Origin: Moorena sp. SIOASIH
GTDB lineage: Bacteria > Cyanobacteriota > Cyanobacteriia > Cyanobacteriales > Coleofasciculaceae
Length of the DNA stretch: 64,000 nt
Direction: 5' to 3'
Assembly: GCF_010671925.1 (NCBI RefSeq)
Contig: NZ_JAAHIH010000001.1
Location: forward strand, 805,053 to 869,052
The first letter of the stretch is position 1; every line of letters begins with the position of its first letter. Below are positions 5,337 through 51,278 of the stretch, in pieces. The translations under genes and the position numbers were made by a program. Under the pieces are notes generated by a model. The model saw only the letters and a program-made list of their open reading frames with translations, was not told where the DNA came from and did not search any database.

Positions 5337-5774
5337 ATAAGATTTTTTAGACTAACAGGAGTTGGAGTAATTATTGGTTTAGGGCTATTGAGGCAAGCAG
5401 ACACGCCCTAGAGTATGGGTTTACACTCAATTATATATAGTTTAATATGTAAAGTCAAGTATGTAAAGTTTTGTAACAAAAACCAAAACTCTGCATAAAA
5501 GGGAGGCATTAGCCCTGATTAATACATAGTTTAAAGGAAACTGACATGCTCGATATTTCCCAAAGATTAAACTAAGTGTCCTCATCCCAAAGCGGATTTC
5601 TCCCAAAGAATGAAGCGGTGCGACCCCGGTCGGCTTTCCCGACAAGCGTGAACGCGCACCAAGAGAGCAGTAGAGCTTTGATACCAAACCCGCTCTAGTC
5701 ACTCCCGTTCAATCTAGGTCTACTTTGTTGAAAAGGGTGTATTCGACCCAGATTCCCTATAAATTCCATAACTT

Positions 5775-8700
5775 ATGAGACTAACATTGAGCTGTCTTAA
5801 CCTGTTGACCAAGATCATCGGTAAGGGAAAATGGGCAGCAAGTAAGTTTTTCCTGCTTGTTTGTTCTTCAACCTATTTGACCTGTTGCCCGTTGCCAACC
5901 CCTGTGCAGGCGCAACCGATAGTTGAAGCCAACGATGGTACTGGTACTGTTGTCAACCCTGAGGGTAACCAATTCAACATTGATGGCGGTAAGCTGTCGG
6001 GAGATGGTGCGAATCTCTTTCACAGCTTCCAGAAATTTGGTCTGAGTGAAGGTCAGATTGCCAACTTTCTCTCTAATCCTAATATCGAAAATATCCTAGG
6101 GCGAGTCACTGGTGGTGATGCTTCTGTAATTAATGGCTTAATCCAGGTTACAGGGGGTAATTCCAATTTATTCCTGATCAACCCCGCCGGGATTGTCTTT
6201 GGTGCTGGTGCCAGCATCGATTTACCTGCTTCTTTTACCGCCACCACCGCTACTGGTATTGGTTTTGATGGCGAGTGGTTTAACGCCTTTGGTAGCAATG
6301 ACTATGCTTCTTTGGTAGGCAAGCCCAATACTTTTGATTTTGCTGTTTCCCAACCAGGTGGGATCATCAATTTAGCGGATTTAGCAGTTAAAGAGGGGCA
6401 GAATTTAACCTTAGTAGGTGGTACTGTGATCAGTAATGGCACTCTTACTGCCCCTGGTGGTCAAGTTACTATTGAGGCTGTGCCTGGAAAAAATTTACTC
6501 CGTATTTCCCAGCGAGGTAATATTCTGAGTTTAGAAGTTTCCCCCTCTGCCACTGTTCCCTTCACTCCCCTTTCCCTACCGGAACTGCTGACAGTTGGCG
6601 GCGGTGATGCTACAGCAATTGAGGTAAATCGTGATGGTACCGTACAACTGATCGGTTCTGGTATCCAGGTCGAAGATGGCGATGTGGTGGTGCAGGATAT
6701 CAGTGCTGGTCAGCAAGTAGTTATTGAAGCAGAAGGTAATATTCGGACAGCATCAATTACTTCCGATGGTGGAAGAATTTTCCTCAATAGTAGACAAGGA
6801 GAGATTGATACTAGTAGTGGCACACTGGATTCAACGGCGGTAAGTGGTGATAGTGGAAATATTGACCTGAAAGCAGAAGGTAATATCACTACCGGGAGTC
6901 TCAATGCTTCCAGTAATAATGGTAATGGTGGTGATATTACTGCTGTTAGCGATAGAGGAAGTATTGATACTAGTGCTGGGGTAGTTGATTCTTCCTCTGT
7001 GGAAGGTAAAGGAGGAGAGGTTCAATTATTCGCTACCGAGGGAAGTATTAATGCTGGTGATATAAATGCTGCTAGTAGTAATGGTGAGAGTGGCAATGTT
7101 ACTCTTGTTGCTGGTAGTGACATCAATACAGAAAATGTTACTGGTGGGGAGATTAGTATCATCAGTAGCACGGGTGCTGGAATAGATACTAGTGCTGGTA
7201 AGGAAAAAGATACTTCTACTATTACTTCCATTCTAGGTTTCGGAAAGCAGAATTTCACTACAACAAGTTCAGACTCTCTAGTCTCACAGCCACCTGAACC
7301 TCCACCTTTGGTGGCTATAGAGCCACCCACGATTGAACCTCCTTCAGTCATCGACCCAAAGCCATTACCACCGCTACCACCAGAACCACAGTTAGATAGT
7401 CAACCACTACCACCACCACAACCTCCAACAACAGTAATTCTTGAACCTGTAAATCCTGTAAATCCTTCAAATCCTTCCCCAACAACACCATCAGGAAGGT
7501 CAGACAATCAAAACTCTGCCTTGCCAACCCAGGTTAATCGATCAGATTTGGCGGTCAATCAGAGCAAGAGGTCAAACAAGACTCAAGCAATGGAACTAGA
7601 ACGACTGACAATCCTGGTACTGGAAATTCGAGAGTGTCTGGCAGAAGAACAATTACTCATAAATTCTCAAGGATTTTCATTACAAGTTGCTGCAAAAGAT
7701 TACAATAAAGCGGCCGAATGCTATCATAAAAACTTAGAATTTGCACGAAAATTTGGCGATAAATTGCGAGAAGCAAAAGCTTTACATAACCTCGGAGTAA
7801 CTCACTATATTTTGGGAGACTATGGCAAAGCTATAGACTATCATAAGCAGCATTTTAATCTTGCCCAATCAGACCCAAACTTAAGAAGAAAACCACAAGC
7901 TTTTAGTGGTTTAGGAGCCGCTTATGGCGCAATAGGAAACTATGACAAAGCTATTGAATACTATAAACAGGGTCTAGAACTAGTAAACTCAACCAATGAT
8001 TCTGAGATGGAAAGGAATATAGTAAGCAATCTCGGATTGGCTTACTACGCTAAGAAGCAATATACCAAAGCACTTGAATACAAAGAAAAAAGTTTAGCGA
8101 TCGCTAAAACATCCGATAACCTACCTGGAAAGGCAAGAGCATTATCTAATTTGAGCTTGCTGTACTATACCCTGACCAACTATAACCAAGCAATTGAATA
8201 CTCTCAGCAGAGTTTAGCGATCGCACAAAAACTGCAAGATAACTATGGAGAGTTAGTAGCCCTAGAAAATTTGGGAATAATTTACTATGCTCTAGAAGAC
8301 TACAACCAAGCAGTAAACTACCAACGCCAAAGTTTAAAAATTGCCAAGCAACTAGGTGATCGCCACGCCAAGGGACGAGCTTTAAGCAACTTAGGTGATG
8401 CTCTCTACAAAGCCGGAAATCCTCAAGAAGCAAATGAGGCTCTATTTGCTGCCATTGAAATTTGGGAGTCTTTGCGGTCAAACTTAGGCAGCAATGACCT
8501 TGAGAGAGTATCAATATTTGAAACTCATCAAACAACTTATAGCGCTTTACAAGAGTATTTAGTAGAACGAAAACAATTCAATCAAGCCCTAGAAATTACT
8601 GAAAGAGGAAGAGCAAGAGCTTTTGTTGAACTATTAGCAAGAGGTTTATCAGAGTCTGAACCAAACCTCAAAACTAATAAACCGATTGCCCCTCCGAACA

Positions 8701-36741: not shown

Positions 36742-38225
<1,484 letters not shown>

Positions 38226-42428: not shown

Positions 42429-44605
42429 ATTAGAGTCGATGCTGGGGATTAGCCCAGGCACCTCTCCTTCAAAGCCGTGCGTGAAACTTTCGCCTCACAC
42501 GGCTCCTAGATTCTCTCAACCTTTCGGCTTGTCTTTCGACTTGCTCCAGTGAATCTGTTGGTGGCAACTTTGGTGAACAGCCATAAGGTTGTCTCTCTTC
42601 CAGTTGTTATGATTTTCATCGATGTGGTGGAGGTGGACTCTTTCCTCATCTATGAATTTCATTCCACAGTATCCACAGGAATGGTTTTGTTTGGTCATCG
42701 CCTTGGATGTATGATTGTCGTATAGCGCACTGTTTCGTTTGCTCCAATATACTAGGTCTCCGTCATAGGGGGACTTAGTTCCTGTGACCATCTTATGTCC
42801 AAAAAGTTTTGTTTTCACTGCTGGGAAAGCTTTTTTACATAGTTCTTTAGCTTCATGTCGGTTCATTTTCTTTTCCTTTCGGAATTTTCTATTTGCCGCG
42901 TAGTTTAGGAACCATAGGCTATCCCGAGAATTGCTCATATCACACCATTTGTGATAGTTTCGCCATCCTCTTACAATGGGGGCTAACTTCTTTGCTTTGA
43001 CTTTTGCACCATAATTCGAGCTGTTGACTACGGTTTTAATCTTCTCACGTATTTTCCTATGATTGTCCGCTGAGGGCTTACAATGGAATTTTCCGTTTTT
43101 CTTGACCCGCATATGCCAGCCAAGGAAGTCGAATCCGTTTGTCGTTTTAGTTATCTTGGTCTTTTCTTGACTGATTTCAAGACCTCGTTCCTTTAAGAAG
43201 TCTTCTACTTTTTGTAGAATTTTCCTGGCATCATCTTTTGGTTTTAGAAAAATTATCATGTCGTCCGCGTAACGGACTGATGGGTGTATTTTTTCTATTC
43301 CGTCAAGTGCGATGTTGGCTAAAAGTGGGCTGACTATTCCTCCCTGGGGCGTTCCTTGTTCATGGAATTCCGGATTGATGCCAGCTTTTAAACATCTGAA
43401 TATCCCCTTCTTCAGATTAGCTGGGGCTAACAACCTATCCATAATGGATTTATGGGAGATGCGGTCAAAACACTTTTTGATATCTAGCTCGATTACCCTT
43501 TTTGTACTGCCTTTCTTTGCTGCATTCAGGTTGGTGAATACATATTGTTGGGCATCATGCGCACTGCGTCCAGTCCTAAACCCGTAACTCCGAGCGTGAA
43601 AGGTAGCTTCGTGTGCAGGTTCCAAGGCGTATTTCACTAGACATTGCCATGCTCGGTCAGCGATGGTTGGGATTTTCAGCATTCTGATTTTCCCATTCTT
43701 TTTAGGGATTGGTACTGCTCTGAGTCCGCTATGTATCCAGTTATGGCCATATTGGTTTAGCTGTTCCGTTAATTCGATTCGCTGACGGTAATTGAGGCTT
43801 TTTCTTCCATCAATACCAGCAGTGCGTTTTCCCTGATTTAGTTTCGTCACTTGACGGACGGCCAATAGCTGTGCTGAACGGGATTTCATGATCAGTTTCT
43901 GTAGAGACCTGACTTTCCTCAAGTCACCAGCTTGAACCGCTTTATATATTCTTCGTTGTAGGCGGAATAAGTTTTGGCGGAGTTTTTTCCACTTTTGACT
44001 TTTCCATAGTTCGCTATATCTGTTTGACATGCGTCTAACCGTACTCTACGTTTGTTGAACATATTCTGAGAACCCGTGCCCAGTTTTGAGCACATCTTAC
44101 CCGACAGTGGGGATTGAGTCTGGCATGACTTACTGAAGGTTCGACCAGCCTTCAGACCCATTTATCGCTGTCGTTTTTACTCGTTCCGTCTAGTGGATTG
44201 TTTCGGCGATTTAGGTCAGCCCACTTTGCCTATTCCCCTCTCAGAGATTACGGATGTCATGTCAAAAACTCCGTGAGAGTAGAGAATTTCTTCCACATGT
44301 TTTATTCAGGTTGTGGTTGGCTATTTAGACACTTTTATAGGACTACTTAAACCATGTCGCCTCCCCGTTAGCGCCAGTGTTGTTACCTGCTTATGGTCAA
44401 CTGATTGCGCCCTGTTGCCAGCGTCACTCTGGAGGAATGCCGTCCACCTCGGTGTGGCCAGATAGGGAGTCATATGTCTCCTCATAGGATGGACTTTCAC
44501 CATCATCCGCTAGACAGTTAGAACTTTTGAGGTTTTAATTCCTCGCGAGTCCCCCAACCCATACCCCTCTATTCTCTAGAGGCTCCTGATTGGAACGAGC
44601 CGCAC
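42429..44605 (-). mobile_element. Group II intron (IIB-like, with an RT-maturase-HNH intron-encoded protein), copy 1, minus strand.
   Basis: The 5' end is GUGCGGCUCGUUCC (reverse complement of 44592-44605). A domain V hairpin and the domain VI ...CAUCGACUCUAAU 3' end lie near 42429-42500. It encodes an intact intron-encoded protein. Confidence 0.85.
42516..44030 (-). CDS. Group II intron reverse transcriptase / maturase with a C-terminal HNH endonuclease domain.
   Basis: RT motifs including YADDMIIF, a maturase X domain, and an HNH (CGYCGMKF...HLHHID.NH..W...NL...H..CH). Confidence 0.9.
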   Translation of the reverse strand: MSNRYSELWKSQKWKKLRQNLFRLQRRIYKAVQAGDLRKVRSLQKLIMKSRSAQLLAVRQVTKLNQGKRTAGIDGRKSLNYRQRIELTEQLNQYGHNWIHSGLRAVPIPKKNGKIRMLKIPTIADRAWQCLVKYALEPAHEATFHARSYGFRTGRSAHDAQQYVFTNLNAAKKGSTKRVIELDIKKCFDRISHKSIMDRLLAPANLKKGIFRCLKAGINPEFHEQGTPQGGIVSPLLANIALDGIEKIHPSVRYADDMIIFLKPKDDARKILQKVEDFLKERGLEISQEKTKITKTTNGFDFLGWHMRVKKNGKFHCKPSADNHRKIREKIKTVVNSSNYGAKVKAKKLAPIVRGWRNYHKWCDMSNSRDSLWFLNYAANRKFRKEKKMNRHEAKELCKKAFPAVKTKLFGHKMVTGTKSPYDGDLVYWSKRNSALYDNHTSKAMTKQNHSCGYCGMKFIDEERVHLHHIDENHNNWKRDNLMAVHQSCHQQIHWSKSKDKPKG

Positions 44606-44675: not shown

Positions 44676-45383
44676 GTGAATCGAGTTGTATTCTGCGACT
44701 TCGACGGTACCATTACCGCCGTTGAAACCTTTGTGGGCATGCTCAAACAATTTGCTCCCGAGTTGTCCGCCCAAATTATGCCCCAGCTGTACAGTATGAA
44801 GCTGACTCTAAGGGAAGGTGTGCGCCAGATGTTAGAGTCAATTCCTTCAGCCAGCTATCGTGAAATTATTGCCTAGGCCCAATCCAAACCGATTCGGCCT
44901 GGTTTAGAGCAATTGTTAGACTTTCTTGATACTCAGAATGTCCCTTTTATTGTCGTTTCCGGTGGTTTGCGCTGCATGGTCGAAACGGTTCTGAGTCAGG
45001 GAAGCACGGGGAAAAAACCTTTACTTGAGCCGGTAGCAGCTATTTATGCTGTTGATGTGGAAACGACCGGGGATTTTCTCAAGGTAACCTCTGAGTTTGA
45101 AGGAAATACAGAACTTGTGTCTAAAGTGCAAGTGATGGCACAACACCCGGCTCAAGAGCAGATCGCCATTGGGGATTCGGTAACGGACTTGAATATGAGC
45201 CTGAGAGCCCCCGTAGTATTCGCCCGCGATCGCCTCAGCAAATACCTGGACGAGCGCCAAAAGCCCTACATTCCGTGGGATGATTTTTTTGATGTACAAC
45301 AAAAGCTATCCCAGCGGTGGAACAGTCAACAACTCACCGCTAAGTCTTGTGAGACTATAGCGGGAGCTTGTGAAAGCTCATAG
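44676..45383 (+). pseudogene. mtnX: HAD-family 2-hydroxy-3-keto-5-methylthiopentenyl-1-phosphate phosphatase (MtnX-like) interrupted by an in-frame TAG at 44874-44876.
   Basis: HAD motif I (FCDFDGTIT) lies in the first ORF (44676-44876) and the GDSVTD motif in the second (44913-45383). Both are in the same frame, separated by one TAG codon. The gene is flanked by two inverted group II introns. Confidence 0.65.
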
Positions 45384-45507
45384 TTGACCAGACTAAGACC
45401 GTTCTAATGGTCTACGTTATTCGAGTCATAACACCTGTAGATGCGTGCCAGTCTTCAGCTCTGTTGTTAACAATTAAACATCTGTAGTGAGTTAAGGAAG
45501 TGTTGTT

Positions 45508-47803
45508 GTGCGGCTCGTTCCTAGGAGGAGCCTCCAGAAACTGGAGGGGTATGACTAGGGGGACTCGCGAGGACTATCCCTCAAAAGTTCTAACTGTTCG
45601 TCGGATGCAGGTGAAAACCCTGCCCTTTAAGAGATAAGTGACTCCCTACCTTGGCCACACCGAGCGGGCGGCAACTCCGCAGAGTGACGCTGGCACCAGG
45701 GCGCAATCAGAACCGAAGCAGATAGGTAACACTGGCGCTAATGGGGAGGCGACATGGGTAAAGTAGTCCTAGAAAAATGTCTAACTTCCAAGCCACAATC
45801 TGAAACAAAATGTGCGACTTTATCATTTTATTCTCACAGCGTTCTAACAACGATAGCTGTAATCTCTGAGAAAAGGATAGGCAAATTGGGAACGAAGTTA
45901 CCGCAAGAATAGTGGAGCCTTTATAGTTAGAGGGTTATGGGAAAAAGGGTTAAAAATTTTGTAGTAAGGCTCCACTATTCTAAGGTTTCATCTCCGGACT
46001 GCCCTAAATCCCCAAAACAATCTGACAGACGGAACGAGTAAAAACGACAGCATATTGGGTCTGAGGAGTAGTCGAACCTCAGTAAGTTATGCCAAACCTA
46101 ATCCCCACTGTCGGGTAAGATGCCACCGGAAACTGGTGGCGGGTATCCAGAATACACGAAACTAATGAAGAGCATGGGTAGACACATGTCAAAAAGATAT
46201 AGTGACCTATGGAAAAGCCAAAAGTGGAAACAACTCCGCCGGAATCTTTTCCGCCTACAGAAGCGAGTGTACAAAGCGGTTCGAGATGGTGACCTGAGGA
46301 AAGCTAGGTCTCTACAAAAACTAATTCTGAAATCCCGCTCAGCACAACTGCTGGCAGTCCGTCAAGTGACTCAGCTTAATCAAGGAAAAAGAACAGCCGG
46401 AGTAGATGGGAAAAAATCCCTAACCTACAAAGAACGGTTCGAGGTACTTAAAAGACTAGGCGACCGTGCGGAAAACTGGACGCACCAAGGGTTGAGGGAA
46501 ATCCCAATACCCAAGAAAAACGGGAGCACGAGAATGTTAAAGGTACCGACAATCCAAGATAGGGTATGGCAATGTTTAGCAAAATTCGCCCTTGAACCAG
46601 CCCACGAGGCAACGTTCAGTGCCTTCAGCTACGGGTTTAGGACAGGCAGATGTGCCCAAGACGCACAAAAGCTATTATTCCTAAATTTAAAATCAGATAG
46701 AAATGGCATAAATAAAAGGGTAATCGAGTTAGATATCAAGAAGTGCTTTGACCGCATCTCCCATAGCTCCATTATGGATAGATTGCTAGCACCTGCGGGT
46801 CTGAAACTGGGGATATTTAGATGTCTAAAAGCAGGCATCAATCCGGAATTCTATGATGAAGGAAGAGGCACACCCCAGGGAGGAGTAGTCAGCCCACAAA
46901 AGCGCCAATATTGCACTTGATGGAATAGAAGAAATCAACAAAGGCATCAGAAGCATTAGATATGCGGACGACCTGGTGATTATACTCAAGCCAAAAGATA
47001 ACGCTGAAAAGGTTTTAGAAAAAGTGAAAAACTTCTTAACTCAACGTGGATTAGAAGTAAATCAAGAAAAGACCAAGTTAACCAAAACGACAGACGGATT
47101 TGACTTCCTGGGTTGGAAGTTTCGAGTCCAGAAAAACGGAAAATTCCGGTGCATTCCCTCTGTGGAAAACCACCGGAATATCCGAAAGAAGATTAAAGCC
47201 GTGGTGAATAGCTCGAATTATGGTGCCGAAGTAAAAGCTCAAAAATTAGCCCCAATCGTACGTGGATGGAGGAACTACCATAAAAGCTGCGACATGAGCA
47301 GTTCCCGAGATAGTTTATGGTTCATGAATAAAACCGCAAACCGTAAATTCCGCAAGGAAAAGAAAATGAACCGGCGTAAAGCCAAGGAACTATGCAAGAA
47401 AGGCTTTCCAGCAGTTGGGTACAAACAAAATCAACACGTGAACGTCAAAGGAACTAAGTCCCCGTATGACGGAGACCTAGTCTACTGGAGTATGCGGAAC
47501 TCCGGACTATACGATGGTGCTACCGCCAAAGCTTTGGATAGGCAAAACCATTCCTGTGGACATTGTGGACACAAGTTCTTAAGCAACGAATATGTACATC
47601 TTCATCACATCGATGGAAACCACGACAATTGGAAGCATAAGAACCTAATGGCAGTACACCAAAGCTGTCACCAGATGATTCATTGGAGCAAGCCGAAAGG
47701 CAAGCCTATTGGTTGAGGATACTTAGGAGCCGTATGAAGGGAAACCTTCACGTACGGTTCTGGAGCGGAGGTGCTCCCCGTAATAGGGGACATCGACCGT
47801 AAT
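45508..47803 (+). mobile_element. Group II intron, copy 2, plus strand. It is about 75-80% identical to copy 1 and its intron-encoded protein is frameshifted.
   Basis: The 5' end is GTGCGGCTCGTTCC at 45508. Domain V GAGCCGTATGAAGGGAAACCTTCACGTACGGTTC is at 47727-47760. Domain VI and the 3' end ...CATCGACCGTAAT are at 47803. Confidence 0.8.
46120..47716 (+). pseudogene. Group II intron RT-maturase-HNH disrupted by a +1 frameshift near 46895 (track ORFs 46120-46920 and 46976-47716).
   Basis: The protein reads ...TPQGGVVSPQKRQYCT* in one frame, while ANIALDGIEEINKGIRSIRYADDLVIILKPKD continues in the +1 frame. Compared with copy 1 there is one extra nucleotide (CAAAAGC against CTTTTA). Confidence 0.7.
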
Positions 47804-47867
47804 AACCTAAAAAGCTCTTATAACATTGTCAAGGCAAACTTTACCCACTTGTGGAGTGTTCAAAGTA

Positions 47868-49151
47868 ATGCGAGTTTTCGTGCTAGATAAAAACAAACAA
47901 CCATTAGATCCATGCCATCCAGCACGGGCTAGGGAGTTACTTAAAAAAGGGAGGGCTAAAGTCTTTAAGCGTTATCCATTTACTATAATCATGCAAGACA
48001 GGGATGTTGAGAATTCTGTTACTCATCCACACAGAATCAAGATAGACCCTGGATCTAAAACAACCGGGATTGCCATCGTTCAGAAAAAAACTGGACGGGT
48101 CACAAGCGCCTTGGAAGTTAATCACAGAGGACAGAATATCAAAAACTCTCTGGAATCCAGAAGAGCTTTAAGGCGAGGTAGGCGAAATAGAAAGACTCGT
48201 TACCGCAAACCTCGGTTTCTCAATCGAAAACGCCCAGGAGGGTGGCTGGCTCCATCGCTAATGAGTCGAGTATTTAATATTGAGACTTGGGTAAGACGGC
48301 TAAGGAAGCTGTGCCCAATAACCACCATATCTCAAGAATTAGTCCGGTTTGATACTCAAAAAATGCAAAATCCCGAAATATCGGGTGTAGAGTATCAACA
48401 CGGTGAACTGTTTGGGTTTGAGGTGAAAGAATATCTGCTTGCCAAGTGGGGTTATAGCTGTGTTTACTGTGGAGCAGAGAACGTCCCCTTGGAGGTTGAA
48501 CACATTACTCCAAAATCTATTGGAGGGACTAATAGAGTCAGCAACCTAACCTTGGCTTGCCGACCTTGTAATCAAAAGAAAGGTAGCGATCTGATTGAGA
48601 AATTTTTACGTAAAAAGCCGGAACTTCTAAAAAAAATACTGGCATTGGGTAAATCCCCCTTGAAAGATGCAGCAGCAGTTAACTCAACTCGTTGGGAAGT
48701 ATGGAGGAGGCTGCAACTGACTGGATTACCTGTTGAAACAGGTTCTGGTGGTCTGACTAAGTTCAATCGTAAAACCAGAGAGATTGAGAAAACCCATTGG
48801 ACTGATGCTGCTTGTGTAGGTAAATCCACTCCTCAGACATTACTACTAAATGGAGTGAAACCGCTAATAGTTACAGCTAAAGGTCACGGGGTGCGCCAAA
48901 GATGTCGTCCAAATAAATATGGCTTTCCAAAAGCTCATGCGCCTGCCGCTAAGTTTTTCAAAGGTTTCCAAACGGGCGATATTGTCAAAGCTGATATCAA
49001 AAGAGGGAAGTATGCCGGTCAATACACAGGACGAATAGCAATTCGCCATCGTCCTAGTTTTGCACTCTCTACTCCAGAAAAGAAAATTGATGTACATCCA
49101 AAGTATTTACAAACAATTTTCAAAGCTGACGGCTATGAATACGCGAGTTAA
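47868..49151 (+). CDS. iscB: IscB: OMEGA-system RNA-guided nuclease (PLMP domain, split RuvC, Arg-rich bridge helix, HNH).
   Basis: An N-terminal MRVFVLDKNKQPLDPCHPARARELLKKGRAKVFKRYPFTI (PLMP-type). RuvC-I IDPGSKTTGIAIV. The bridge RRALRRGRRNRKTRYRKPRF. RuvC-II SQELVRFD. The HNH CVYCGAENVPLEVEHITPKSIGGTNRVSNLTLACRPCNQKKG. RuvC-III HWTDAAC. About 427 aa from the ATG at 47868. Confidence 0.8.
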   Translation: MRVFVLDKNKQPLDPCHPARARELLKKGRAKVFKRYPFTIIMQDRDVENSVTHPHRIKIDPGSKTTGIAIVQKKTGRVTSALEVNHRGQNIKNSLESRRALRRGRRNRKTRYRKPRFLNRKRPGGWLAPSLMSRVFNIETWVRRLRKLCPITTISQELVRFDTQKMQNPEISGVEYQHGELFGFEVKEYLLAKWGYSCVYCGAENVPLEVEHITPKSIGGTNRVSNLTLACRPCNQKKGSDLIEKFLRKKPELLKKILALGKSPLKDAAAVNSTRWEVWRRLQLTGLPVETGSGGLTKFNRKTREIEKTHWTDAACVGKSTPQTLLLNGVKPLIVTAKGHGVRQRCRPNKYGFPKAHAPAAKFFKGFQTGDIVKADIKRGKYAGQYTGRIAIRHRPSFALSTPEKKIDVHPKYLQTIFKADGYEYAS

Positions 49152-49159
49152 ATTAATCA

Positions 49160-49290
49160 ATGATTCGCGCTTGGCCTATGGCCACGCGGGGCGCGTTCGC
49201 TGGCCTATGGCCACGCATTCGCGTTCAATTTATTCTCCTGCGGGAATTCCCCTCCCGCTAAAACTAACGTTTATAACGGGAGTCCCCTTC
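49160..49290. repeat. Cluster of short hairpins and direct repeats downstream of iscB; a candidate IS200/IS605-like right-end structure.
   Basis: TGGCCTATGGCCACGC occurs twice (each a 5-bp-stem palindrome). GCGGGAATTCCCCTCCCGC and ACGGGAGTCCCCTTCCCGT are hairpins. Confidence 0.35.
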
Positions 49291-50052: not shown

Positions 50053-51147
50053 TTAACCAGACTTGATGGTAGTCCGTATACTGCCCATCACCAAAATCAC
50101 TAGGGTAACTATCGTTAGAGGTACGACAAATGTCATCATGATAGTACTAAACTGTGATAAAGCTTGGTGTTGTGTGGCGTTTAGGAACAAATACAAGGTA
50201 TAGGCACCGTAATAGCTTAAAAAGAGAAATCCCTCCCACCTGGAAATTTGATAGCCAGTAAAGAAAATTGGTAGACAAGCCACCGCCACTGCAATCATTA
50301 CTGGAATATCGAAGTTTAGGGCAGGAGTTGACACCTTTATACCATCAGGCACAATCAAGCTACACATCCCCAGCACCAACAGGATATTAAAAATATTGCT
50401 GCCAATAGCGTTACCTACGGCAAGATCTCGCTGACCACGGACACTGGCAATAATGGAGGTGGCAATTTCTGGAAGAGAGGTGCCAACAGCGATAATGGTT
50501 AAGCCAATAATCAACTCGCTCCAGCCAAAGATCTTGGCCAGAGCAATAGCTCCATCAATCAACCACTGGGAACCTAGTACTAACATTCCTAAGCCGAAAA
50601 CAATCAGCCCTAACTGAGTAACTATCTTTTTAAGGCTAGTACGAGACTGGCGAGATTTGGTTTGAGGGGTATCCTGGCCTGGGATTTCCTGATTTTCTTT
50701 GCGACTCTGAATAATGGTAAATAAAGTATATGCGATCGCGCCAGCCAACAGAATGCTCCCATCAAATCTACCCAGTTGGCCATCCAAGCTCATAAACAAG
50801 AGTAGGAATGATATGCCAATCATCAATGGTACATCTAATCGCACCAACTGCCGGGATACAACCAAGGGTAACATAGTTGCCGATATGCCTAAGATTAGCA
50901 AAATATTGGCAATGTTGCTGCCAACGATGTTACCAAGGGCAATATCCGCTTGTCCTTCATAACTCGACTGCAATACTACGGCTAATTCTGGGGCACTGGT
51001 GCAGTAAGCGACTATAGTCAGCCCGATCACTAAGGGGGAGACACCTGCTACCAACGCCAACTGTGATGCGCCCTTGACCAAGATTTCCGCCCCAACAACT
51101 AAAAGTACAAAGCCAGCAATAAATAAAATGAGAGTGATTATGTTCAT
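50053..51147 (-). CDS. Ca2+/cation antiporter of the CaCA family (YrbG / Na+-Ca2+ exchanger-like).
   Basis: Two alpha-repeat motifs (GNIVGSNIANILLILG and GNAIGSNIFNILLVLG). About 10 TM segments. 364 aa. Confidence 0.85.
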   Translation of the reverse strand: MNIITLILFIAGFVLLVVGAEILVKGASQLALVAGVSPLVIGLTIVAYCTSAPELAVVLQSSYEGQADIALGNIVGSNIANILLILGISATMLPLVVSRQLVRLDVPLMIGISFLLLFMSLDGQLGRFDGSILLAGAIAYTLFTIIQSRKENQEIPGQDTPQTKSRQSRTSLKKIVTQLGLIVFGLGMLVLGSQWLIDGAIALAKIFGWSELIIGLTIIAVGTSLPEIATSIIASVRGQRDLAVGNAIGSNIFNILLVLGMCSLIVPDGIKVSTPALNFDIPVMIAVAVACLPIFFTGYQISRWEGFLFLSYYGAYTLYLFLNATQHQALSQFSTIMMTFVVPLTIVTLVILVMGSIRTTIKSG

Positions 51148-51278
51148 TGGCTGTGTGTGAGTAAGTCATTGACGACGAGTTTACTTGATCAAGTACAAAG
51201 CCAGCAATAAATAAAATGAGAGTGATTATGTTCATTGGCTGTGTGTGAGTAAGTCATTGACGACGAGTTTGCTTCATC
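51103..51278. repeat. Tandem ~88-bp duplication covering the antiporter start codon and its upstream region (copy 1 at 51103-51190, copy 2 at 51191-51278).
   Basis: AGTACAAAGCCAGCAATAAATAAAATGAGAGTGATTATGTTCATTGGCTGTGTGTGAGTAAGTCATTGACGACGAGTTT is repeated with slightly diverged ends. It creates an out-of-frame second ATG and the small ORF 50957-51235. Confidence 0.75.

Follow-up and report, generated by a model that had tools for sequence, protein, structure and literature searches.

The stretch of DNA analysed here, 64,000 nucleotides (nt) from the cyanobacterium Moorena sp. SIOASIH (contig NZ_JAAHIH010000001.1, positions 805,053 to 869,052 of the forward strand; referred to as the window), carries an IscB element between the genes mtnX and mtnB of the methionine salvage (mtn) cluster. 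The element contains an intact iscB gene preceded by its omega-RNA gene, and the second of two group II introns in the window (copy 2) was found inside the omega-RNA gene. An Rfam scan of the window gave four matches above the gathering score, one to HEARO (RF02033), which today goes by the name of IscB omega-RNA, two to group II intron domains V and VI, and one to a thiamine pyrophosphate (TPP) riboswitch. HEARO and the IscB omega-RNA reportedly go back to Weinberg 2009 and Altae-Tran 2021, respectively. In an IscB omega-RNA the guide lies 5′ of the scaffold, and the expected guide segment was placed on that layout. The coordinates of all features are collected in Table 1.

The HEARO match covered positions 45325-45568 of the forward strand with 86.6 bits (E 4.3e-16; gathering score 83), and its alignment was good only up to 45507, beyond which the first 61 nt of the intron had been forced onto the 3′ end of the model. 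Positions 45508-45568 were rejected as the 3′ end of the omega-RNA: they are intron nt 1-61, give many non-canonical pairs and bring the score down from about 140 to 86.6 bits. When HEARO was aligned with the window by means of an iterated nhmmer profile, the match broke exactly at 183|184, profile positions 1-183 aligning with 45325-45508 and positions 184-223 with 47805-47844. This split confirmed that the group II intron sits inside the omega-RNA gene, in sense orientation, with exons that can be rejoined only by splicing. An earlier note on this DNA had proposed such an interruption and was right in this, but it let the 5′ exon begin at 45384, whereas the exon spans 45325-45507. Its other coordinates for the locus all held: the intron ends at 47803, the distance from there to the iscB ATG is 64 nt, and that from the mtnX stop (45383) to the intron start is 124 nt.

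The interruption lies between columns 186 and 187 of our HEARO alignment (A1, 13 sequences), in the 3′ strand of stem 144-152/181-189, which is the second large hairpin of the omega-RNA. The 3′ exon (47804-47844) holds the last 3 nt of this interrupted stem together with the 3′ strands of the long-range helices, and it ends 23 nt before the iscB ATG (47868), on the same strand and at the left end of the insertion sequence (IS). Because the closing strands of the long-range helices are all contained in the 41-nt 3′ exon, an unspliced transcript is unable to form the omega-RNA fold; it is without 15 pairs, including all long-range closures, and cannot be canonical omega-RNA.

The exons were then considered in the joined state, with comparison copies drawn from 80 IscB loci of species-representative genomes; 80 further IscB loci from metagenomes bring the comparison loci to 160. 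The joined exons were assessed from intron-less copies that are almost identical to them, from a sequence profile and from counts of pairs, and the copies compared are paralogous IS copies. In six close Moorena copies the in-silico spliced sequence (45325-45507 plus 47804-47867) was found uninterrupted just ahead of iscB, the junction showing no gap; the identity was 97% over all 247 nt in one of them (L001) and 89-94% in the others (L002, L003, L009, L016 and L024). The 5′ exon by itself (45325-45507) was 90-98% identical to six intron-less Moorena copies and 70-80% identical to six more distant ones. For eleven intron-less copies the score over the full HEARO model (positions 1-211) was 132-149 bits, as compared with 86.6 bits for the interrupted gene, and the intron-less relatives 89-97% identical to the joined exons reached 132-145 bits over the full length of the model. 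An RNAalifold consensus computed from alignment A1 contained 71 pairs, 27 of them with compensatory changes. Deletion of 45508-47803 had been put forward in the earlier note, and it came out in favour of its proposal: besides the contiguity and identity just given, the spliced sequence satisfied 71/71 consensus pairs over a full-length HEARO/omega-RNA, and 15 of these pairs have one partner in each exon. By these comparisons the joined exons are a canonical, full-length HEARO/omega-RNA in which all consensus pairs are predicted to form.

Smaller additions to HEARO were seen at other loci. An identical 24-nt insertion (GTTCGCGCAAGCGTGTGCTTTGCA) is present in the 3′ tail of HEARO in L016 and L012 (A1 columns 214-237), and four metagenome loci (L099, L131, L114 and L137) carry expansions of 40-90 nt; the omega-RNA gene has therefore also been struck by other small insertions. 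Moorena producens 3L carries two nearly identical HEARO copies (L004:3535-3753 on the reverse and 5757-5975 on the forward strand), divergently oriented and about 2 kb apart.

Table 1. Features of the IscB locus and of the two group II introns in the window
Feature	Position	Strand	Remarks
Expected guide segment, length assumed	45305..45324	+	Placed from the known layout; directly 5′ of the scaffold and of the IS left end, within the mtnX coding region
Non-autonomous IscB (ISC-type) element, about 1.63 kb without the intron, between mtnX and mtnB	45325..49252	+	
Omega-RNA 5′ exon, 183 nt (profile positions 1-183)	45325..45507	+	Rfam 86.6 bits; nhmmer E 3.8e-41; alignment A1
Intron-binding site 2 (IBS2), GGAAGT	45496..45501	+	In the omega-RNA 5′ exon
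Intron-binding site 1 (IBS1), GTTGTT	45502..45507	+	Last 6 nt of the omega-RNA 5′ exon
Group II intron copy 2, 2,296 nt, GTGCG...AAT, IIB-like	45508..47803	+	Sense to omega-RNA and iscB; boundaries nucleotide-exact from empty-site copies
Exon-binding site 2 (EBS2), ACTTCC, complementary to IBS2	45784..45789	+	Loop pairs with its own exon in 4/5 other family introns
Exon-binding site 1 (EBS1), AACAAC; lies in a hairpin loop and is the complement of IBS1	45846..45851	+	Covariation with own exons in L024, L081, L082 and L085
108-nt palindromic MITE-like insertion in domain I	45890..45997	+	Absent from the five other family introns compared
Copy 2 reverse transcriptase (RT)/maturase/HNH frame	46186..47716	+	+1 frameshift at about 46896-46900 (open reading frames 46120-46920 and 46976-47716)
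Copy 2 domains V and VI	47725..47803	+	Rfam Intron_gpII 60.3 bits, E 2.3e-09
Omega-RNA 3′ exon, 41 nt	47804..47844	+	nhmmer positions 184-223, E 2.7e-4; contiguous with the 5′ exon in intron-less copies
iscB, 427 aa, intact and full-length	47868..49151	+	Pfam RRXRR (RRXRR/RuvC) 251 bits and HNH; matches solved IscB structures
Group II intron copy 1, 2,177 nt, 74% identical to copy 2	42429..44605	-	Rfam domain V/VI match 42429-42507 (-)

The sequence of copy 2 starts with GTGCG at 45508 and ends in ...CGACCGTAAT at 47803; the 5′ GUGYG and 3′ AY boundaries, combined with the domain V/VI match, are those of a mobile group II intron. The predicted ligated exon junction reads ...GGAAGUGUUGUU|AACCUAAAAAGC, which may also be written GGAAGTGTTGTT|AACCTAAAAAGC, and the empty site, in the form of exact contiguous GGAAGTGTTGTT|A, was present in six intron-less copies, indicating that the insertion was precise. 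EBS1 and EBS2 of the intron pair 12/12 in Watson-Crick fashion with the final 12 nt of the 5′ exon. When six family introns were aligned, both loops matched their own, different 5′ exon in 4/5 of the others (L024, L081, L082 and L085/86), and since the loops covary with their own exons in these four introns, the assignment of EBS1 and EBS2 was confirmed.

These results also bear on a possible assembly artefact, in which a repeated intron would have been misplaced into HEARO. The introns of this family are highly repeated in Moorena, and numerous public contigs are of about the size of the intron (~2.2 kb), showing that assemblies break at such repeats. Even so, both junctions are exact, and removing 45508-47803 restores the intron-less sequence with no base missing or extra; moreover, the complementarity of EBS1 and EBS2 to this exon is specific, and their combination was seen nowhere else in the compared sequences, which a misjoin would not yield. 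We regard an artefact as extremely improbable.

IBS1 and IBS2 are at the same time the 3′ strands of an omega-RNA hairpin, the partner 5′ strands of which lie in the same exon. Since the same nucleotides serve in both, we infer on kinetic grounds that folding of the omega-RNA and the EBS-IBS pairing by which the intron recognises its exon would be mutually exclusive.

IscB is 97% identical to its homologue in L001 over residues 1-427, and the iscB Shine-Dalgarno sequence GGAG, 11 nt upstream of the ATG, has been kept, so that translation is still possible. Homology with the paralogous copies in L001, L002 and L016 begins at 45319-45325, according to which copy is taken, and ends at 49252, and the flanks differ. 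The intron reading frame aside, IscB is encoded by the only open reading frame (ORF) of the element, with no TnpA. The omega-RNA scaffold overlaps the 3′-terminal 59 nt of mtnX, where it begins; since these 59 nt (45325-45383) are IS/HEARO sequence, the IscB element has replaced the native 3′ end of mtnX. The mtnX gene (44676-45383) further contains a single in-frame TAG at 44874-44876 in an otherwise continuous frame of 236 codons, and the mtn cluster as a whole has received three mobile elements.

We then turned to the condition of the intron itself. With the domain I insertion removed, domains I-III of copy 2 kept 153/163 pairs of the family consensus, the five relatives from which the consensus was made having 151-161, and its domain V/VI score of 60.3 bits was near the top of the family range (52-62 bits). 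The intron-encoded protein (IEP), on the other hand, is frameshifted upstream of the YADD motif, with CCACAAAAGCGCC where copy 1 has CCACTTTTAGCC, as the earlier note had already recognised; repair of the frameshift gave a protein of 509 aa with no other stop codon. RVT_N, RVT_1 and GIIM domains were found in it by Pfam, and the HNH domain only through alignment to the copy 1 IEP. Copy 2 as it stands does not encode an intact RT/maturase/endonuclease, and it is a degenerate copy of a bona fide intron family.

A second lesion, missed in the earlier note, is the 108-nt palindromic insertion in domain I, which resembles a miniature inverted-repeat transposable element (MITE). Its site adjoins helix 273-277/401-405 of the family consensus fold. 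The insertion ends in GG, recreating the GGACU strand, and the flanking helix can still form with the MITE hairpin protruding from an internal loop. Related elements of about 105 nt, palindromic and with conserved ends GAAGTTACCGCAAGAATAG...CTATTCTAAGGTTTCNTCTCCGG, were found at L024:2501-2602, L082/L083:4887-4990 (L082-84), L016:7488-7563 and L002:7373-7451. Across several Moorena genomes they turn up within group II introns, in two instances inside an RT reading frame, and also immediately 3′ of IscB elements, and in L024 the RT reading frame is apparently still open across the MITE.

The two lesions are what one would expect if copy 2 were a dead end, that is, if it could not splice, the omega-RNA gene were permanently destroyed and IscB were either useless or loaded with omega-RNAs from intact copies. 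The premature stop in the adjacent mtnX would fit a decaying neighbourhood, and with several HEARO-IscB copies in each related Moorena genome, the loss of one would be cheap. Against this, the frameshift is a single lesion in a 509-codon ORF, the ribozyme has kept its pairs at the level of the family and its domains V/VI near the top of the range, the exons retain every consensus pair with iscB intact, and the terminal GG of the MITE leaves the flanking helix possible. Cyanobacterial IEPs are, in addition, known to splice degenerate relatives in trans (Mohr 2010, PMC2882425). Taken together, we consider a dead end a serious contender with somewhat less than an even chance of being right.

To place copy 2 among its relatives, it was compared with copy 1 and with other members of the family. 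With 74% identity over 2.2 kb, the two introns belong to one family, but neither is a copy of the other. The IEP of copy 1 is intact (504 aa, RT/X/HNH, 42516-44030), in agreement with the earlier note, and its closest solved relative is the T. elongatus TeI4h group IIB IEP (6ME0, E 3.5e-70). Copy 1 is flanked by mtnW and mtnX and runs antisense to these two genes, and it is therefore unspliceable from the operon transcript. It was also the exception in the EBS alignment, its EBS2 loop mismatching its own 5′ exon and its EBS1 pairing only through two G-U wobbles, which suggests that it occupies an ectopic (retrotransposition) site.

The repaired IEP of copy 2 has more than 100 close relatives, almost all in Moorena, the best being 90% identical, as against 73% for the IEP of copy 1. 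The suggestion in the earlier note that a maturase would be supplied in trans by copy 1 stands in so far as copy 1 is one possible, though unproven, source; it is not the closest. Close RT relatives were located at unrelated sites, namely between the PGM and Ham1 genes (L081) and inside an ORF of unknown function (L085 and L086), and among those with an examined context (L081, L082-84, L085 and L086) none was inside HEARO. Judged from these sequences, the family of copy 2 is large and its target specificity has diversified. A close relative of copy 2 was also seen about 165 nt upstream of a gene for TnpB (OrfB_IS605), on the same strand, in Moorena metagenome-assembled genomes (L082:3971-6254; also L083 and L084); its RT is 87% identical to that of copy 2 and is itself broken by a MITE. 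It gives a second case in which a member of this intron family is associated with an OMEGA-type element.

In order to see how common the arrangement is, the 160 comparison loci were searched for a group II RT between HEARO and iscB; one was present in 0/80 genome loci and 0/80 metagenome loci. Among about 150 other HEARO-positive loci, none had HEARO halves more than about 100 nt apart, and the exact 5′ junction pattern had 0 matches in metagenome contigs. The exact 13-nt target of copy 2 (GGAAGTGTTGTTA) was found unoccupied in six HEARO copies from four other Moorena genomes (L001:5925, L002:5924, L003:5924, L009:5924, L016:5901 and L024:5924). The intron in the omega-RNA gene is a one-off event and not a conserved architecture. 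That the arrangement is unique among the IscB loci is also as expected for a dead-end insertion.

The rarity further affects the idea of an evolved intron-gated guide RNA, in which splicing would be a selected step of maturation or regulation, IscB being switched on only where maturase is present and omega-RNA folding competing with EBS-IBS pairing in a manner like that of IStrons. The sense orientation of the intron and its perfect EBS-IBS pairing would suit such a device, as would the use of IBS1 and IBS2 as the 3′ strands of an omega-RNA hairpin, with two mutually exclusive pairings; an analogous conflict has been demonstrated in group I IStrons (PMC10690162). A selected device is nonetheless hard to reconcile with a single occurrence (0/160 other IscB loci, about 150 unsplit HEARO, no junction match in metagenomes), with six identical targets left empty elsewhere, with relatives of copy 2 at unrelated sites, and with a copy that bears both a frameshift and a MITE. 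We therefore hold it to be very unlikely.

The account that we favour, with a probability of roughly 0.8, is that a member of the Moorena intron family inserted into omega-RNA DNA while these introns were spreading through mobile DNA; we read the arrangement as a by-product of that spread and not as an evolved device. The non-autonomous IscB element would first have landed between mtnX and mtnB, and a Moorena group IIB intron would then have inserted into the omega-RNA DNA by RNA-guided retrohoming or retrotransposition, presumably with RNA-guided reverse splicing into the DNA as the first step and reverse transcription as the second. Transcription entering from mtnX would give a precursor consisting of the guide region, omega-RNA nt 1-183, the intron, omega-RNA nt 184-224 and iscB. 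Splicing of this precursor would restore the canonical omega-RNA to the nucleotide, making it indistinguishable from that of intron-less copies. Because the IEP of copy 2 is frameshifted, such splicing would need a maturase in trans from a related intron in the genome.

Several points weigh against this account or against the splicing that it allows for. Splicing of copy 2 is proposed from sequence. The omega-RNA hairpin can compete with the EBS loops for IBS1 and IBS2, and the IEP frameshift and the 108-nt insertion in domain I could have made copy 2 splicing-dead. Maturases usually work best on their own intron, and the sole IEP of the window is only 73% identical to that of copy 2. Finally, the six exact homing sites that stand empty mean that HEARO is not demonstrably a regular home for copy 2. 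On balance, we put at roughly even the chance that the locus would still yield some spliced omega-RNA. The stronger proposition, that copy 2 splices with a maturase in trans and that a working guide RNA arises here only as the spliced product, making it a natural "split" omega-RNA, appears unlikely. It is equally doubtful that maturation is gated, as this proposition would have it, by a shared group II splicing apparatus, with the omega-RNA hairpin and the EBS loops competing for the same 12 nt.

If a spliced product does exist, it would be the first natural case of an RNA-guided nuclease whose guide RNA requires group II intron splicing. It would also mean that the omega-RNA tolerates transcription as two pieces with subsequent joining, a point of interest for the design of split or inducible guides. 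If the intron is not spliced, the locus would be one more case of cyanobacterial introns using IS elements as safe landing sites and inactivating them, which is understood in principle.

Two further features of the window lie apart from the IscB locus. The TPP riboswitch (38122-38218 on the reverse strand, Rfam 71.6 bits) lies a short way downstream of the ftsH ORF and shares its strand. At 51123-51260 on the reverse strand, a tandem duplication of about 70 nt extends over the 5′ end of a gene resembling those for Na+/Ca2+ exchangers; two ORFs share the first 15 residues (MNIITLILFIAGFVL) there, and the copies are about 18 nt apart.

The earlier note knew of no described case, be it of an intron-interrupted guide RNA or of an intron that targeted an IS element. 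Introns in IS elements are in fact on record, and a proliferating cyanobacterial group II intron in an element of the IS200/605 superfamily is a kind already known. For a group II intron that splits an omega-RNA gene, on the other hand, our full-text literature search for group II introns together with IscB, HEARO or TnpB brought up no report. The guide-RNA gene as host sequence appears to be new, seen in a single occurrence and with a copy of the intron that carries two lesions.

The closest parallel is found in T. elongatus, where three group II introns occupy a conserved site in ISEL1, an element of the IS200/IS605 family (Mohr 2010, PMC2882425). In that species the introns have diversified in their targets, with a preference for IS elements and other introns, and degenerate introns are spliced in trans by shared IEPs (PMC2882425). 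The Moorena introns are likewise a cyanobacterial IIB family that has expanded in the genome, with diverged EBS and targets and with insertion into IS and other mobile DNA; degenerate copies rely on the IEPs of relatives in T. elongatus and would do so in Moorena, and among solved structures it is the IEP of TeI4h (6ME0) that comes closest to that of copy 1. They differ in that the Moorena host sequence is the omega-RNA part of an IscB element, so that the interrupted product is a structured guide RNA, in that one occupied site was seen instead of a conserved multi-copy site, and in that Moorena is a mesophilic marine organism.

Introns with an RT-HNH protein are also on record from Anabaena and Nostoc, including PCC 7107, where they lie in IS605 transposons (Kapitonov, Makarova & Koonin 2016, PMC4810608). 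These cases resemble the present one in that a group II intron coding for an RT-HNH IEP is nested within an element of the IS200/IS605 superfamily, the host being a filamentous cyanobacterium. Unlike the Moorena intron, they lie in IS605 (TnpB) elements and were reported before omega-RNAs were known.

IStrons, which combine an IS607/IS605 TnpB element and a group I intron in one fused unit (Zedaveinyte et al. 2023/2024, PMC10690162), share with the Moorena locus an intron and an OMEGA guide RNA on one transcript, with structures that compete, as IBS1 and IBS2 are hairpin strands in Moorena. The Moorena intron is not an IStron, being a group II intron nested inside the IS and having independent relatives at non-IS sites, and the locus departs from a typical HEARO in that its omega-RNA gene is split by 2.3 kb. 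In IStrons the group I ribozyme forms the ends of the transposon, and the whole IS is spliced out of host genes. Splicing there destroys the omega-RNA, whereas in Moorena it would create it; a spliced product at this locus would thus be the mirror image of IStrons, where splicing and guide formation exclude each other.

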